A stretch of DNA of 64,000 nt. Source: Acidobacteriota bacterium. GTDB lineage: Bacteria; Acidobacteriota; Aminicenantia; Aminicenantales; Saccharicenantaceae. Where the stretch lies: assembly GCA_039683095.1 (NCBI GenBank), contig JBDKSB010000012.1:929846-993845 (forward strand), written 5' to 3'. Position 1 is the first letter of the stretch. Every line of letters begins with the position of its first letter. This document shows, piece by piece, positions 7,298 through 49,346 of this stretch. The notes beneath the pieces were generated by a model. That model saw nothing but the letters and a program-made list of their open reading frames with translations. It was not told where the DNA came from and did not search any database. Made by a program: the position numbers and the translations under genes.

Positions 7298-8846
7298 TCG
7301 ACAGGGCCGGATTGACGCCCAGGTTCTCCGGGATCTGGGAGCCGTCACAGACGATCATCCCGGCATAGCCTTTGACCCGGTTGCGCTCGTCGATGACGCC
7401 CTCCTCCGGGGTCGGGCCGAACGAGCAGCCGCCCAGGATGTGGGCCGTGATGGGCGCGCCCACCGTGACCTCGGTGATGACGTTGGCCGGGACCGCGTCC
7501 ATCCGCCTGGCCATCCGCCGCCCGAAATCGTTGCCGGCCGGGAGCCAGGTCGGGTTCCGGCGGTCCGTGCCGGGTTCGGAGACGAGGACCGCTTCTAACG
7601 GGGCATACCAGCGCCGGCGCCGCTTCAAATGGAAATAATTGTCGACCGTCTGCATGCCCAGCAGGATGATCGTCTGCCGGGCCCAGCCGGGCGGCCGGCG
7701 CAGGCGCAGATGGCGCAGGGGATGACGCAGCTCGTTGGCCAGCCAGCGCAGGACCCGGGGCGTCCTTTTGCCGCCGTCCGTCAGGGCGGCGACAAGCGCG
7801 CACATGACGTCATGTCCTTTCCCGAAGCGCACCGGTTCGAGGTGCGTGTCGGCGTCCGGGTGGACGCTCGAGGTGATGGCCACGCCCCGGCTGAAGTCGG
7901 CGTCCCTGGCCAGCGAGCGCACGCCGAGCATGGTCTCGCTGTTCGTCCGGGCGTACTTGCCGAGAGGCGCCGGCAGGTTCGGCAGCCGGCCCTTGCGCTT
8001 CATGTCGAGCAGCAGCGTGTTCGTGCCCAGGGCGCCGGCGGCGACGACCAGCGATTTGACTCGGAAGGTCAGGCCGCGCCTTCCCCGCAACAGGCCGGTG
8101 GTCTTCCGCGTCCGGACACGATACCCGTCGCTCCCGTCGGCGGAGAGCGGCTCGATATCGACGACCTTGTTCTCGGAGAAGACCCGGGCCCCGAACTTCT
8201 CGGCGAAGTAGAGATAGTTCTTGTCCAGGCTGTTCTTGGCGTCCTTGCGGCAGCCGGTCATGCACTCGCCGCAGAGCTCGCAGCCGATGCGGTCGGGCCC
8301 TTCGCCCTCGAAATAGGGGTCCGCCGCCGGCTCCCCTTCATGGCCGAAATAAACGGCCACGTCGGTCAGCCGGTAGGTGGCCTCGCGGCCGATCTCGGCC
8401 GCCGTCTCCTTCATCAGGACGTCCTGGGCCGTCTCGACCGGGTTGCGGACGATACCGAGCATGCGGCCGGCCAGGTCGTAGTAAGGCAGGAGTCCGGCCT
8501 TGCCGCCGAGCCGGCGGACGCTGGGGCGCTCGAAGAAGACGTCGGGCGGGACGTAGAGCGTGTTGGCGTAGTTGAGGCTGCCGCCGCCGACGCCGGCCCC
8601 GGCCAGGATGAAGGCCCCGTTGAGGAGGCGCAGACGCCAGGTGCCGTAGAGGCCGAGGCCGGGCATCCAGAGGAACTTGCGCAGGTTCCAGTTGCGGCGC
8701 GGGAACTGGTCGGCGTGCCAGCGCCGGCCGGCTTCGACGACGCCGACCGAATAGCCCTTCTGGGCCAGGCGCATGGCCGCGACGGAGCCGCCGAATCCGG
8801 ACCCGACGACCAGGCAATCGAAAACGAGCTCTTCGCTCTTCTTCAT
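7179..8846 (-). CDS. GMC family FAD-dependent oxidoreductase (cholesterol oxidase-like)
   Basis: N-terminal [20 protein letters not shown] Rossmann motif and a GMC C-terminal region [29 protein letters not shown], at 555 aa. Confidence 0.85.
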   Translation of the reverse strand: [555 protein letters not shown]

Positions 8847-8864: not shown

Positions 8865-8893
8865 ACTTTACAGAAGACGGCCGGAGAGGTCAA
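8865..8893 (-). promoter_or_regulatory. Sigma70-like promoter TTGACC-N17-TAAAGT for the GMC oxidoreductase
   Basis: Minus strand reads cTTGACCtctccggccgtcttctgTAAAGTggggcgcattcggggaaaATG. Confidence 0.45.
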
Positions 8894-9018
8894 GGACGCG
8901 CATTGGCGCTGAGCGCCTTCAGGGCTTCGCGTCTTTGGTCTCCGGCCGTCGGGCCCCGGCTCGATAGAGCGGGATCCTCTTGAACGGCGGTCCGGATCGC
9001 GGTTGAGCGATAAGCCTC

Positions 9019-9047
9019 TTGACAGCCCCGCGTCCGTATAATATATT
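9019..9047 (+). promoter_or_regulatory. Sigma70 promoter TTGACA-N17-TATATT (overlapping TATAAT) in the AT-rich island upstream of the MerR-rSAM operon
   Basis: TTGACA at 9019-9024, TATAAT at 9037-9042, TATATT at 9042-9047. The surrounding sequence is ~30% GC in a 70% GC genome. Confidence 0.6.
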
Positions 9048-9049
9048 CG

Positions 9050-9059
9050 TGTACGTACA
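9050..9059. promoter_or_regulatory. Perfect 10-bp palindrome TGTACGTACA immediately downstream of the -10 (operator-like)
   Basis: Self-complementary with a GT-N-AC core typical of GntR/FadR-type operators. It is followed by the inverted repeat TATGAA-N6-TTCATA at 9065-9082. Confidence 0.4.
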
Positions 9060-9102
9060 TGTTATATGAAAATCTATTCATAATTGAACGCAAAGGTATA
9101 GA

Positions 9103-9831
9103 ATGAACAGAGACCTTCTAACCGTCCAGGACCTGGCCGACAAGGCCGGGGCCCCGGCCGAGCGTGTCGCGGAATGGACCAAGGTCAAGCTCCTCAAGCC
9201 CGACGGCTACGGCGAGAAGAAGTCCCCCCTGTTCTCCGTCTCGAGTCTCGAGCAGGTCGCCGTGGTCCAGCGGCTGGCCGATCTCGGCTACGGCACCGAC
9301 GAGATCATCAAGATCGTCAAGAGGGTCGGCCTGCCCCGCGACCGGCGCGGCAAGAAAAGGGCCCGCGACAAGGGCTACTTGACCGTCGGCAACCTGGCCG
9401 AGCGCTCCGGCGTCAGCCCGCGGACGATCAAGCACTGGGAGGACAAGGGCATCATCGAGCCCGACATGCGGACCGAGGGCGGCTTCCGGCTCTACTCGGA
9501 ATCGTACGTCATCCTCTGCCAGCTCATCCGCGACCTCCAGCTCTTCGGCTACTCGCTCGAGGAGGTCAAGGCCATCTCGGACGATGTCCGGACGCTCCTG
9601 GCCATCGAGGCCGAACTCGAAGCCTACCCCCAGGCCGAGGTCGAGAAGCGGCTGGCCGCGATGCTCGAGGCCATCCGGGGCCTCTCCGACAAGATGAAGC
9701 TTCTGGAGGAGGGCATCGAGCGCTGGCGCGACCTTCTCAAGAAGAAGAAAAAGGACATCGTCGCCCTCCAGGGCCGGAACCAGAAGCGCGGGAAAGCCGC
9801 CAAAGAAAATAAGGAGAAGAGCCATGCATAA
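9103..9831 (+). CDS. MerR family transcriptional regulator with two tandem MerR HTH domains, a coiled coil and a Lys-rich tail
   Basis: HTH1 is LTVQDLADKAGAPAERVAEW...LGYGTDEI. HTH2 is LTVGNLAERSGVSPRTIKHWEDKGII...FGYSLEEVKAI. The C-terminus is LLKKKKKDIVALQGRNQKRGKAAKENKEK. SD aaagg lies upstream of ATG 9103. Confidence 0.8.
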   Translation: MNRDLLTVQDLADKAGAPAERVAEWTKVKLLKPDGYGEKKSPLFSVSSLEQVAVVQRLADLGYGTDEIIKIVKRVGLPRDRRGKKRARDKGYLTVGNLAERSGVSPRTIKHWEDKGIIEPDMRTEGGFRLYSESYVILCQLIRDLQLFGYSLEEVKAISDDVRTLLAIEAELEAYPQAEVEKRLAAMLEAIRGLSDKMKLLEEGIERWRDLLKKKKKDIVALQGRNQKRGKAAKENKEKSHA

Positions 9832-11263: not shown

Positions 11264-11327
11264 GGGACGCTCCGAACCGTTTACATGCCCCTCCGTATCA
11301 ACTAGAATATTCTGGAATTTTATCCCT

Positions 11328-12062
11328 ATGGAGTCGCCCATGCCCAATGTCCTGACCGTCCGGGGACTGAAAAAGTCCTACGGCACCCAGCACGCCCTGG
11401 CCGGCATCGACTTCGATGTCCGCGTTGGCGAGGTCTTCGCCCTGATCGGCCCGAACGGGGCCGGCAAGACCACGACCCTCCGCATCGTCGCCACCCTGCT
11501 GACCTCGACCGCCGGCGAGATCTCCTTCCTCGATCACGACCTCGGCAAGGATCCCGATTTCGTCCGGGAGAAGATCAGCTACCTGCCGGAAGAAGCCGGC
11601 GCCTACAAGGACATGAAGGGCCTGGATTACCTTCATTTCATGGCCAACTTCTACGCCCGGACGCCGGAGGAGGAGAAGGAGTTCGTCCGCCGCGCCGTCG
11701 AGATCACCGAGCTCGGCGACCGCCTGTCGACCAAGGTCGGCACCTACAGCAAGGGCATGACCCGCAAGCTCCTCCTGGCCCGGGCCCTGATGACCAAGCC
11801 CGTGCTGGCCATCCTCGACGAGCCGACCTCGGGCCTCGACGTCCTCAACGCCCTGGAGGTCCGGGAGATCGTCCGCCGCTACGTCAAGGAGGGGACGTCG
11901 GTCCTGCTCTCTTCCCATAACATGCTCGAGATCGAGTTCCTGTCCGACCGGGTCGGGCTCATCAACAAGGGCCTGATCCTCGACACGGGCACGCCGGCCG
12001 AGCTCAAGGACAAGCACGCGGCCAAGAACCTCGAAGAGGTCTTCAGGAGTTCCCTCCGATGA
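11328..12062 (+). CDS. ABC transporter ATP-binding protein (ABC-2 type)
   Basis: Walker A GPNGAGKTTT, signature YSKGMTRKL and Walker B ILDEPTSGLD. The alternative start at 11340 (MPNVLTV) is also possible. Confidence 0.9.
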   Translation: MESPMPNVLTVRGLKKSYGTQHALAGIDFDVRVGEVFALIGPNGAGKTTTLRIVATLLTSTAGEISFLDHDLGKDPDFVREKISYLPEEAGAYKDMKGLDYLHFMANFYARTPEEEKEFVRRAVEITELGDRLSTKVGTYSKGMTRKLLLARALMTKPVLAILDEPTSGLDVLNALEVREIVRRYVKEGTSVLLSSHNMLEIEFLSDRVGLINKGLILDTGTPAELKDKHAAKNLEEVFRSSLR

Positions 12063-14830: not shown

Positions 14831-15086
14831 GGGCCGCTCCACCAAAGGCAAGGCTGGAGCCAATGGGGAAACGAAGTCGGTTGTAGCGCCGCAAGAGCAT
14901 TTCCCGGCTATCAAGGCGGAGATTTGGAAGCTAAAAAACAACTAAGCCTTCTTGAAAAGCAATCGCGTTTTGTTATCAGGCATTAATCGCCCCGCCCTTG
15001 GGATCGCCGGGCCATGGATAGCTTATGTGCCCCGTCTCCTATGCGTGCGGCTATTGCGGACAACCGGCGCATTCGAACTCTGAGCT

Positions 15087-25158: not shown

Positions 25159-25240
25159 GGTCCGGTGCGTCAATTATAACACCCTTCAGCCGCACCGGTC
25201 CGACGAGGGGGGCAAATGAAAAGGAAATGAGAAAGAAGGA

Positions 25241-25288
25241 GTTCAAACCTACTTTTTACTCATTTTTGCGCAAAAAGCAGGTTTGAAC
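25241..25288 (-). terminator. Intrinsic terminator-like hairpin spanning the stop codon of 25249-27246
   Basis: Arms GTTCAAACCT / AGGTTTGAAC enclose a nested palindrome TTTTTGCGCAAAAA. It is followed on the minus strand by the pyrimidine/T-rich tract TCCTTCTTTCTCATTTCCTTTTCATTT. Confidence 0.45.
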
Positions 25289-27246
25289 CCCTCTTTTCCA
25301 TCTTCGACGAGGGTGACGTGGCCGTCGAAATCGGTGACGACCACCTCTCGGCCGCTGAGGGGGGTTAGCGTGTTGAGAAGGGCGACGCCGACCCGGTGCT
25401 TCCACTTGATCGCCCCGGTCGCCCCGTCGAGGGCCAGCAGCAGCCCGTTCTTCGTTCCGTAGAAGACGACTCCGTCCTTCTCGACCAGCATGGCCGAGTT
25501 GATGTCTTGGCCGAACCCGCCGTCGGTCTCCCAGACGGCCTTGGCGTCGTCCTCGGCCGTGGAGACGGCCGCGATGAGGTTCTCGGTGGTCCGGACATAG
25601 ACCCGGGCGCCGTCGGCCGAGATGCCGATGGACTCGCGCACGGCCCAGTTGTCGGTGCCCCAGAGCTCCCGGCCCGTGCCCAGCTCGATGGCCGTCATCC
25701 AGGGGTCGGGGGCGACGATGAAGACGCGGCCGTTGGCCGCCACGGGCCAGCAGGCGGCCGGCGAGTAGAACCAGCTCGGCTTCTCCCCTTTCCACGTCCA
25801 GACGGCCTTGCCGGTCCGGGCGTCGAGGGCGTAGAGAAGCCCGTCCCAGGCGCCGAAGACGACCAGACCGCCCGCGACGAGCGGCTTGGCCTCCACGAAG
25901 CCGTCGATCCCGTCCTGGCTCCAGACGGGCCGGCCGGTGGCCAGGTCGATGGCCCGGAAAACGTGGTCGCCGGAGCCGATATAGACGACCTTGCCCTCGA
26001 TCCGCGGCGAGGCCACGACCGGGCCGCCGGTCACGGTCTTCCAGACGAGCGTCCCGAGCCGGGCATCCAGGGCGTAGATCGCCCCGTCCGTTCCGCCGAA
26101 AACGACCAGGCCGCCGCCGGCCGCGGGCGCGGAGTAGATCGGATCGTCCGTTTTGAACTCCCAGGCGATGCTGCCGTCGCTCGTCCGCAGGGCCCGCACG
26201 GAACCCGAGGCGTCGGCGAAGATGATCGTCTCGCCGTTGGCCGCGGCCGGCGAGGCGATGGTCCACCCGGCGTTGAAGCGCCAGCGCTCCTTGACCTGCG
26301 GGTAGAGGGCGTTGACGCCGAAGTCGGGCCGGGCCGGCGTTCCCGGCCTGGCCCCGGCCTTCGCGCTAGCGCCGCCGGCGGGCCGCCCGGCCGCCACGAT
26401 CGGCAGGCCGCCCTTTTCGAGCTCGATCCGGCACCAGGGCGCGCCGGTCCGCCGCTCCGTCCGCCCGGCGAAGGTCATCGCCTTGGCCGCGATCTCGACG
26501 ATGTTGTAGCCCGGCCCGACGTTGCCGGCGCCGATGTTGGCCCGGCCCATGACCCCCCGCAGGCCCTCGAAGTCCAGCAGCTGGTCCTTGTGGCCGTGGC
26601 CGACCAGCACCGCGACCGTCGGAACGGTCTTCAGCTTGTCGAGGACGACGTACCAGTTGGCGATGCTTTCGTCGAGCGGGTAGTGACTGACGAAGATGGT
26701 CGGCTTGGCCGCCGAGGCCTTGTCCTCCAGCAGGCCCAGCAGCCAGCGGACGTCCTGCGGGGCCCAGTGCCCGTCGCCCATCCGCAGGACCGGTCCCTGG
26801 GACAGGCCGATGAACCGGAAGCCGCCGCTCTCGAAGGCGAAGCGGTCAGCGCCCCAGACCCGGACGAAATCCGAGCCCCCCGACTCCGACCATTTCGTGT
26901 CGTGGTTGCCGGGGATGATGTGGTACGGGATGCGGAGGCCGTCGAGGATGTCCTTGGCCAGGCGGAAGTTCTCGTACGACCCCTTGTCGGTGACGTCCCC
27001 CGTGACCAGGGCGAACGACAGGCCCGGGATCGAGTTGATGTCCGCGACCGAGGCCCTGAGGTCGTCGGCTCCGCGGGCCGCGCCGACGTGGGTGTCGCTC
27101 AGCCAGGCGAACCGCAGGGCGGCCTTGCCGGTGCCGGCCGGGCCGGTCTCCCCCGGGGCGCCGCCGGCCGCCGCGGCCGCGAGAAGGCCGCAGGCGATCA
27201 GGGCCGCGATCAGGAGCGGCGCCGCGCGAAAGGCGAATTTCTTCAT
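25249..27246 (-). CDS. Calcineurin-like metallophosphoesterase fused to a PQQ-repeat beta-propeller (secreted)
   Basis: Start re-assigned to MKKFAFRAAPLLIAALIACGLLAAAAA (ATG 27246). Metallophosphoesterase motifs LSDTHVG, GDVTDKG, GNHD and GHGH. The C-terminus has multiple PQQ-like repeats (AIYALDARLGTLVWK, LLYALDARTGKAVWTW). Confidence 0.8.
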   Translation of the reverse strand: MKKFAFRAAPLLIAALIACGLLAAAAAGGAPGETGPAGTGKAALRFAWLSDTHVGAARGADDLRASVADINSIPGLSFALVTGDVTDKGSYENFRLAKDILDGLRIPYHIIPGNHDTKWSESGGSDFVRVWGADRFAFESGGFRFIGLSQGPVLRMGDGHWAPQDVRWLLGLLEDKASAAKPTIFVSHYPLDESIANWYVVLDKLKTVPTVAVLVGHGHKDQLLDFEGLRGVMGRANIGAGNVGPGYNIVEIAAKAMTFAGRTERRTGAPWCRIELEKGGLPIVAAGRPAGGASAKAGARPGTPARPDFGVNALYPQVKERWRFNAGWTIASPAAANGETIIFADASGSVRALRTSDGSIAWEFKTDDPIYSAPAAGGGLVVFGGTDGAIYALDARLGTLVWKTVTGGPVVASPRIEGKVVYIGSGDHVFRAIDLATGRPVWSQDGIDGFVEAKPLVAGGLVVFGAWDGLLYALDARTGKAVWTWKGEKPSWFYSPAACWPVAANGRVFIVAPDPWMTAIELGTGRELWGTDNWAVRESIGISADGARVYVRTTENLIAAVSTAEDDAKAVWETDGGFGQDINSAMLVEKDGVVFYGTKNGLLLALDGATGAIKWKHRVGVALLNTLTPLSGREVVVTDFDGHVTLVEDGKEGFKPAFCAKMSKK

Positions 27247-49271: not shown

Positions 49272-49346
49272 AAAATGGGGGACACGATACCTATTTCCTA
49301 TTTTCGCCGGCACCGATAATTAGGAAATAGGTATCGTGTCCCCCTA
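49271..49346. terminator. Bidirectional intrinsic terminator with a perfect 24-bp stem (two inverted repeat units) between convergent araA and the M28 peptidase
   Basis: 49277-49300 GGGGGACACGATACCTATTTCCTA pairs with 49321-49344 TAGGAAATAGGTATCGTGTCCCCC across a 20-nt loop. An A6 tract lies upstream. The T-rich tract TAATTTTCTTAATTTTC lies downstream on the plus strand, and TTTTTT on the minus strand. Confidence 0.7.

Follow-up and report, generated by a model that had tools for sequence, protein, structure and literature searches.

A Conserved Promoter with a Candidate Two-box Operator Upstream of a Tandem-HTH MerR-family Regulator Gene

The Locus and the Compared Sequences

This work deals with a non-coding region in front of a MerR-family regulator gene on contig JBDKSB010000012.1 of an Acidobacteriota bacterium (assembly GCA_039683095.1). 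The DNA analyzed, in the following called the window, is a 64-kb stretch with an overall GC content of 68.7%. The regulator contains two winged helix-turn-helix (HTH) domains in tandem and its gene is followed by one encoding a B12-binding radical S-adenosylmethionine (SAM) enzyme. Further downstream, genes for an ABC ATPase (11328–12062), an ABC-2 permease and an MFS transporter are located, and upstream lies a divergently oriented GMC oxidoreductase gene. An earlier note made from the letters of the window had described the region in front of the regulator as an AT-rich island with stacked dyads. It comprises a sigma-70-type promoter and two inverted boxes, and this arrangement is kept almost without change across more than 70 uncultured bacterial species. 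The features are compiled in Table 1.

For the comparison, a scan with one genome per species yielded 334 stretches encoding a relative of the regulator, and the best 80 of these 334 loci were kept. They derive mostly from Candidatus Aminicenantes, with some representatives of Calditrichaceae, Neomarinimicrobiota and Spirochaetota. Searches for sites and genes covered the window and ~12 kb per relative (867 kb of loci in total). An alignment of 48 upstream sequences from 48 species, termed A2, was used for conservation, whereas promoter counts refer to 72 loci, box and spacing counts to 71 loci and the dyad and GC statistics of the inner spacer to 61 loci. The promoter and both boxes were found upstream of the regulator gene in 70+ species-level genomes, with identities of the MerR homologs down to 48–50%.

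Table 1. Features of the regulator locus; coordinates refer to the window unless another locus is named.
Feature	Coordinates	Strand	Remarks
−35 hexamer TTGACA	9019–9024	+	Invariant in A2 (48 species); TTGACA in 67/72 loci
Promoter spacer, 17 bp, GC-rich, sequence unconserved	9025–9041	+	17 bp in 65/72 loci
−10 hexamer TATATT	9042–9047	+	TATATT in 45/72 loci
Box 1, CGTGTACGTACATGTT; family consensus CCTATRCGTAYATGTT	9048–9063	+	Directly after −10; centered on predicted +1 at ~9054; contains palindrome 9050–9059
Inner spacer, A/T only, length conserved, sequence free	9064–9081		~18 bp between the boxes; holds most of dyad 9065–9070/9077–9082
Box 2, AATTGAACGCAAAGGTA	9082–9098	−	Minus strand CCTTTGCGTTCAA, inverted copy of box 1; overlaps Shine-Dalgarno sequence AAGGT (9093–9097)
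Tandem winged-HTH MerR-family regulator, 242 aa, candidate binder	9103–9831	+	Pfam MerR_1 6.5e-20, two stretches; MerR 1.9e-13
B12-binding radical SAM enzyme, 479 aa	9824–11263	+	Start overlaps MerR stop by 8 nt; Pfam B12-binding and Radical_SAM
Locus without radical SAM gene, L076	5900–6000 (L076)		DUF6051 downstream
Locus without radical SAM gene, L061	5900–6000 (L061)		HlyIII-family membrane protein downstream
Locus without radical SAM gene, L062	1–120 (L062)		HlyIII-family membrane protein downstream

AT-rich Core and Promoter

The AT-rich island of the earlier note exists, but its extent of ~110 bp at ~30% GC had been misjudged: the core comprises ~66 bp at ~26% GC (9037–9102, 25.8%), and the GC content amounts to 35.7% for the 84 bp from 9019 to 9102, to 41.8% for the 110 bp ending at 9102 and to 53% for the span 8913–9102. 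At all scales from 50 to 110 bp this core is the GC minimum of the entire window. The promoter TTGACA-N17-TATATT, which had already been pointed out, was confirmed at 9019–9047; a consensus scan gave matches at 11 of 12 positions, and within 2 kb four promoter-like matches were counted compared to 0.2 expected from shuffled sequences. A TATAAT overlapping the −10 hexamer is indeed present (9037–9042), but with a distance of 12 nt to the −35 hexamer a pairing is impossible and it provides no usable alternative. In A2, TTGACA, both box cores (CGT in box 1, ACG in box 2) and the ATG are invariant, while the −35/−10 spacer and the inner spacer between the boxes are free to vary. Except for an A/T run leading into the −10 hexamer, no conserved columns were detected in the former.

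Classical MerR activators are reported to bind a dyad within a −35/−10 spacer of 19–20 bp and to activate transcription by untwisting this spacer (PMC8113463). A promoter of this type was rejected for the locus, as the spacer has the optimal length of 17 bp, which 65 of 72 relatives share, and the boxes start downstream of the −10 hexamer. Because the spacer is 17 bp long and unconserved, a MerR-type operator within an overlong spacer is excluded and the classical mechanism of MerR activation is inapplicable.

An upstream open reading frame (ORF) of 15 codons (9060–9106), starting with ATG at 9060, reading MLYENLFIIERKGIE and ending in a TGA which overlaps the ATG at 9103, was considered and discarded; stop codons interrupt it in relatives, e.g., in L002 and L004.

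Two Inverted Boxes Around an Unconserved Spacer

The perfect 10-bp palindrome TGTACGTACA reported earlier was recovered at 9050–9059. Such palindromes are not rare, with 189 of them in the window, and this one is notable for its conservation and not for its symmetry. The CGT core of box 1 is invariant in 71 of 71 loci and in all 48 rows of A2, and in 44 loci its CG is situated 6 nt behind the −10 hexamer, where the transcription start is expected. Box 2, a conserved element absent from the earlier note, reads A-N2-TRWACGYATAGGTA; its ACG core is invariant in 71/71 loci as well, and its CG precedes the ATG by 14 nt in 61 of the 71. A position weight matrix (PWM) matched box 1 at 9048 (plus strand) and 9049 (minus strand) and box 2 at 9084 (minus strand, 16.1 bits). 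The boxes are inverted copies of the motif CCTATRCGTWYAnnT, each of ~15 bp, and the mirror symmetry reaches 6–7 positions inward. From CG to CG they are separated by 35 bp in 38 and by 34 bp in 24 of 71 loci; a minority shows distances of 29, 31, 36, or 37 bp. The complete two-fold symmetric element measures 49 bp (9048–9096). In place of stacked dyads, the actual symmetry is therefore one large two-fold arrangement of inverted boxes 34–35 bp apart. The assumption of a strong sigma-70-type promoter with an operator over +1 is supported by the comparison across genomes, and the position of box 1 would fit a repressor.

A deviating arrangement was observed in a Calditrichaceae-like group (L056, L060, L065, L067, L078), in which 29 bp separate the boxes and two or three ACGT cores are present in box 1; in L065, box 1 is the perfect 18-bp palindrome CTGTACGTTCACGTACAG. 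This suggests a different half-site arrangement combined with the same protein length.

Between the boxes, the mean GC content is 18% over a slightly wider stretch of ~25 nt (61 loci). No conserved position was found in the inner spacer by A2 and k-mer analysis, and a possible third motif was rejected, the only enriched k-mers belonging to the ATGTT flank of box 1. It is this sole unconserved part of the conserved region that holds the inverted repeat TATGAA-N6-TTCATA (9065–9082), which had been proposed as a separate operator. The repeat is there, but it is unconserved and at chance level. For two independent stacked operators (9050–9059 and 9065–9082), each bound by a different protein, speak the presence of both dyads in the window, the retention of the second one in the two nearest relatives sharing the spacer, L001 and L005, and a marginal enrichment of short dyads in the spacers of 61 loci, with a summed arm length of 243 compared to 230 in shuffles (8 of 200 shuffles reach 243). 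However, the second dyad is kept only in these two relatives, shuffling the 25-nt spacer produced arms of at least 6 bp in 23 of 200 cases, the arms of most relatives measure 3–4 bp, and no further copy of the repeat was found in the 64-kb window. Two stacked operators are hence regarded as extremely unlikely.

The Tandem-HTH MerR-family Regulator

The ribosome-binding site and start of the regulator gene had been assigned correctly, with AAGGT at 9093–9097 and ATG at 9103, and the encoded protein contains two MerR-type HTH stretches. Its homologs with 72–95% identity derive from Candidatus Aminicenantes. The AlphaFold2 model (mean predicted local distance difference test score 79) consists of a winged HTH domain (residues 5–75), a disordered basic linker (80–90), a second winged HTH domain (93–147) and a helix of 64 residues (177–240). 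Best Foldseek matches are the single MerR domains of CueR, MtaN, NmlR, and CadR (probability 1.00), while no tandem MerR structure turned up in this search; sequence matches in the PDB comprise CueR, MerR, TipA, and MtaN and additionally the entries 4r22, 4r24, and 7tea. Pfam, PDB, AlphaFold2 and Foldseek agree on an N-terminal winged HTH followed by a long dimerization helix, which places the protein within the MerR family. The second HTH is invariant across 22 regulator homologs.

A metal or drug sensor of the MerR type was rejected, since the NCBIfam models for ZntR, CueR, MerR, CadR, and SoxR match no more than the HTH part, with scores far under their cut-offs. The C-terminus consists of one long helix and a basic tail without a recognizable ligand domain, and the only Cys which is invariant in the 22 homologs, C139, lies inside the second DNA-binding domain. 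With MerR, CueR, ZntR, BmrR, and SoxR the regulator shares the winged HTH followed by a coiled-coil helix, but it differs from these classical activators by its two HTH domains and by the lack of a C-terminal metal- or drug-binding region. Operators of the MerR type are rich in CCT...AGG-type palindromes, to which the boxes bear some resemblance.

Some further properties of the protein were noticed. The disordered, basic linker (residues 78–92, window ~9334–9378) has the consensus PRDGRGRKKAPDK and is reminiscent of an AT-hook, and the C-terminal tail (residues 213–242, window ~9739–9828) is rich in lysine. Either of them may contact the A/T-only spacer. All regulator homologs carry a precomputed match to Pfam PF28507. 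Searches of the literature for the motif, for tandem MerR proteins, for MerR combined with radical SAM in Aminicenantes and for PF28507 returned nothing specific, except for the AraR operator discussed below.

Association of the Boxes with the Regulator Gene

The radical SAM gene directly follows the MerR gene in 77 of 80 loci. The enzyme falls below every NCBIfam cut-off; among solved structures, an unnamed radical SAM protein (9ccb) and AprD4 come closest to it. The radical SAM gene is missing from three loci, two of which (L061 and L062) belong to Neomarinimicrobiota, but the promoter and the boxes still precede the regulator gene there; in L062, the one measured, the spacing is 35 bp. ABC genes were found only in closer relatives, and the downstream genes are otherwise variable.

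The ABC ATPase gene has a promoter of its own, TTTACA-17-TAGAAT at 11280–11308, which is conserved in 25 related loci as AACCGTTTACWTCCCC..CCGTATC.ACTAGAATA and which relatives keep even where other DNA parts the ABC genes from the radical SAM gene. Therefore, the island serves the MerR and the radical SAM gene, and the ABC genes look like an independent transcription unit; the MerR-radical SAM-ABC operon of the earlier note could thus not be upheld, as more distant relatives lack the ABC genes altogether. The CCGTAT in the spacer of this second promoter is conserved, too, and possibly forms a separate binding site.

In a PWM scan of the 867 kb, 169 of 212 matches were located ≤75 nt upstream of a MerR gene. 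The others are mostly MerR-upstream sites in loci lacking a start coordinate, and the remainder are weak and lie inside coding sequences. Within the window, the threshold was exceeded only by the two boxes and by a single weak site at 15038. The latter has a GC-rich context and no partner box, and neither pattern nor PWM scans, run on the window and on the 80 loci, revealed a convincing extra site that would point to a wider regulon. In this comparison the boxes accompany the MerR gene, not the enzyme gene, across phyla.

Regulator Encoded Elsewhere, RNA Helix or Bare Promoter

The core of the palindrome at 9050–9059 had initially been compared with operators of GntR/FadR-type regulators. AraR of Bacillus subtilis, which combines a GntR-family DNA-binding domain with a sugar-binding domain, recognizes the consensus operator ATTTGTACGTACAAAT; two properly spaced operators near the promoter and +1 are bound cooperatively, which results in high repression (PMC1950556). 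The window palindrome is identical to the 10-bp core of this operator, 11 of 16 AraR consensus positions match in the window, and the family consensus TATRCGTAYA retains the invariable positions Pu5, T6, G9, A11, and Py12 of AraR. The boxes might accordingly be operators of a regulator encoded elsewhere, e.g., one with an AraR-like domain of the GntR family, and the MerR protein would have other targets. Against this speaks that a tblastn search of the window and the 867 kb with three hand-written GntR-like HTH queries yielded a best E-value of 0.055 and thus none below 0.05, and that the boxes occur only before the MerR gene and stay there when all other neighbors change across several phyla. 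Furthermore, the strongest conservation resides in the outer arms CCTAT/ATAGG, which are not part of the AraR consensus, and the boxes are asymmetric inverted copies rather than two palindromes. Neither a gene for a regulator of the GntR/FadR type nor an AraR-like gene with a sugar-binding domain was detected near the boxes in this search, and control by a distant regulator appears quite unlikely to us.

The reverse complementarity of the boxes also allows an action at the RNA level, in which box 1 (CCUAUGCGU) would pair with box 2 (ACGCAUAGG) within the 5′ leader and thereby mask the Shine-Dalgarno sequence inside box 2. Such a leader would work as a thermometer-like switch or as a translational switch opened by a ligand or a protein. 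Across the 48 sequences 85.9% of the cells pair, compared to 84.3% in shuffles (3/500), double changes occur at two pairs, and in L009 and L049 the hairpin folds well when box 1 is assumed to be transcribed completely (z = −2.6 and −3.7). Two inverted copies of a single protein-recognition site would, however, show the same weak covariation. The 5′ arm adjoins the −10 hexamer, and with the predicted +1 in the middle of box 1, CCUAU and thereby about half of the arm would remain untranscribed. From the predicted +1, folding is no better than that of shuffles (window z = −0.30, L009 z = −1.08), and even the full-length leader of the window is unfolded (z = +0.57). At variable pairs, G·U and non-pairing combinations are equally frequent (9 v 9, 9 v 8, 11 v 13), and A·C mismatches appear at the rate of independence (18 observed, ~19 expected), a pattern that is not expected of an RNA helix under selection. 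In the clade of the window, CCTAT of box 1 has changed to CGTGT without compensation in box 2. Rfam gave no match at E-values up to 10. A structured leader RNA was consequently rejected as a class for this element, and we hold the RNA helix to be rather improbable as an explanation of the boxes.

A third explanation manages without any regulator and attributes the conservation to the constraints on a strong promoter, i.e., a discriminator, an initial transcribed sequence, an AU-rich unstructured leader and an extended ribosome-binding site. Box 1 abuts the −10 hexamer, box 2 holds the Shine-Dalgarno sequence at a fixed 14 nt from the ATG, and AU-rich leaders are generally known to favor translation initiation. 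Yet neither a discriminator nor a Shine-Dalgarno sequence can explain the invariant ACG/CGT core or the mirror-image 15-bp elements, and the ABC promoter of the same genomes, situated 2 kb further downstream, shows nothing of the kind. This explanation is considered very unlikely.

Proposed Mode of Action

The reading we favor, with a probability of roughly 60%, is that the island represents the promoter and a two-fold symmetric bipartite operator of an autorepressed MerR-radical SAM unit, which would be bound by the adjacent MerR-like protein. The MerR protein is the likeliest candidate binder because it is the only DNA-binding protein that always accompanies the element; it had been suggested before, but for the dyad at 9065–9082, where the missing conservation speaks against a separate site. 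Repression is proposed because the site is centered on the predicted +1 of a near-consensus promoter, and the two-fold symmetry of the 49-bp element argues for a symmetric protein complex. One tandem winged-HTH subunit could occupy each ~15-bp box with both of its HTH domains, and the long C-terminal helix would hold two subunits together in the manner of other MerR proteins. Flexibility or minor-groove contacts for the basic linker might be provided by the A/T spacer. Occupancy of box 1 would block open-complex formation or promoter escape, and the role of box 2 would be that of a roadblock or a source of cooperativity. An otherwise strong promoter would in this way be under negative autoregulation. 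Tight repression and inducibility of this promoter, as proposed earlier, are inferences.

Several points weigh against this proposal. A distance of 34–35 bp corresponds to ~3.3 helical turns, so that the boxes do not lie on the same face of straight B-DNA, and a single dimer must span ~119 Å or bend the DNA. A function of the long helix as a ruler is unsupported, as the protein has 235–244 aa whether the boxes are 29, 31, 34–35, or 37 bp apart. The boxes of the window depart from the family consensus (CGTGT for CCTAT; CAAAGG for CATAGG), and there is the likeness of the box core to the operator of AraR, a protein with a DNA-binding domain of another family (GntR). A larger regulon or a distant regulator gene may lie beyond the 64 kb and the ~12 kb per relative. 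Finally, the +1 position is a predicted one, and binding and repression are deduced from sequence comparison.

The nearest functional analog of the proposed unit is HspR, an autoregulated heat-shock repressor of the MerR family without ligand domain, which binds cooperatively to an operator of tens of bp overlapping its own promoter (PMC6102357). The NCBIfam entry for the “fused homodimer type” of HspR provides a precedent for a tandem MerR architecture. Membership in this group was nevertheless rejected, as the regulator scored 33.3 bits with NF047375 (cut-off 105) and 25.8 bits with NF047377, the fused type (cut-off 300). The HAIR motif recognized by HspR proteins is CTTGAGT-N7-ACTCAAG; by direct reading, neither CTTGAGT nor ACTCAAG occurs in 8990–9110. 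Unlike in HspR systems, the partner is a B12-radical SAM enzyme and not a chaperone, and the operator would consist of two inverted boxes 35 bp apart and not of one central inverted repeat.

GlnR and TnrA are small repressors of the MerR family that lack a ligand domain. The glnRA operon, in which the enzyme gene follows that of the regulator, is subject to autorepression at two sites, and the regulator is in turn controlled by the enzyme itself. The locus described here resembles this system in its ligand-less MerR-family regulator and in the order of regulator and enzyme gene, an analogy that serves only as a lead. The motif TGTNA-N7-TNACA is absent, the NCBIfam model for TnrA reached 27 bits with a cut-off of 140, and a contact between the radical SAM enzyme and the regulator is likewise suggested by analogy only.

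Taken further, the MerR protein and the B12-radical SAM enzyme could constitute a sensor-effector module that is self-contained and conserved in at least four phyla. The 49-bp operator would be clamped by a dimer with four HTH domains, each subunit holding one box and the A/T spacer being bent or contacted by the basic linker. Release would be triggered by the enzyme or its product, in the way glutamine synthetase acts on GlnR/TnrA, and not by a small ligand on the regulator. As a whole we rate this extension as unlikely; if true, it would constitute an undescribed DNA-binding mode of the MerR family together with an undescribed signaling route.

Aminicenantes and their neighbors are uncultured, and gene regulation in these bacteria is almost undescribed. 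The region supplies a comparatively validated model of a sigma-70-type promoter for the Aminicenantes group and a precisely delimited candidate operator with a likely regulator. The latter represents an uncharacterized tandem-HTH branch of the MerR family, which is barred from the textbook MerR mechanism and has a B12-radical SAM enzyme as its partner in 77 of the 80 loci. A model with four HTH domains and two boxes would, if true, extend the known DNA-binding modes of the MerR family and may hint at when the enzyme is needed; if it is wrong, a non-coding element of unusually high conservation is left, for which another explanation is required.

Further Elements in the Window

A promoter-like sequence, TTGACC-17-TAAAGT at 8865–8893 (minus strand), precedes the divergent GMC oxidoreductase gene, which starts with ATG at 8846 on the minus strand. 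The −35 element of this promoter-like sequence, GGTCAAG when read on the plus strand, is found again in the upstream DNA of many relatives; in the window it is located inside a 25-bp imperfect inverted repeat (8876–8900/8928–8950), of which the 12-nt core is perfect. In L001, the closest relative, this repeat is missing and the intergenic region is ~100 bp shorter.

Other AT-rich gaps occur in the window. The gap at 14908–14993 separates the ORF of a small membrane protein from an ORF of 1272 aa. At 25240–25290, an inverted repeat (GTTCAAACCT...AGGTTTGAAC) surrounds a T/A-rich loop and has a terminator-like appearance. A long hairpin with perfect arms of ~23 bp (GGGGACACGATACCTATTTCCTA ... TAGGAAATAGGTATCGTGTCCCC) is situated at 49275–49345. 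Hairpins of the type GGGGACA...TGTCCCC were also found in the intergenic DNA of L014, L029, L031, and L063, which suggests a family of repeated palindromic elements or terminators.

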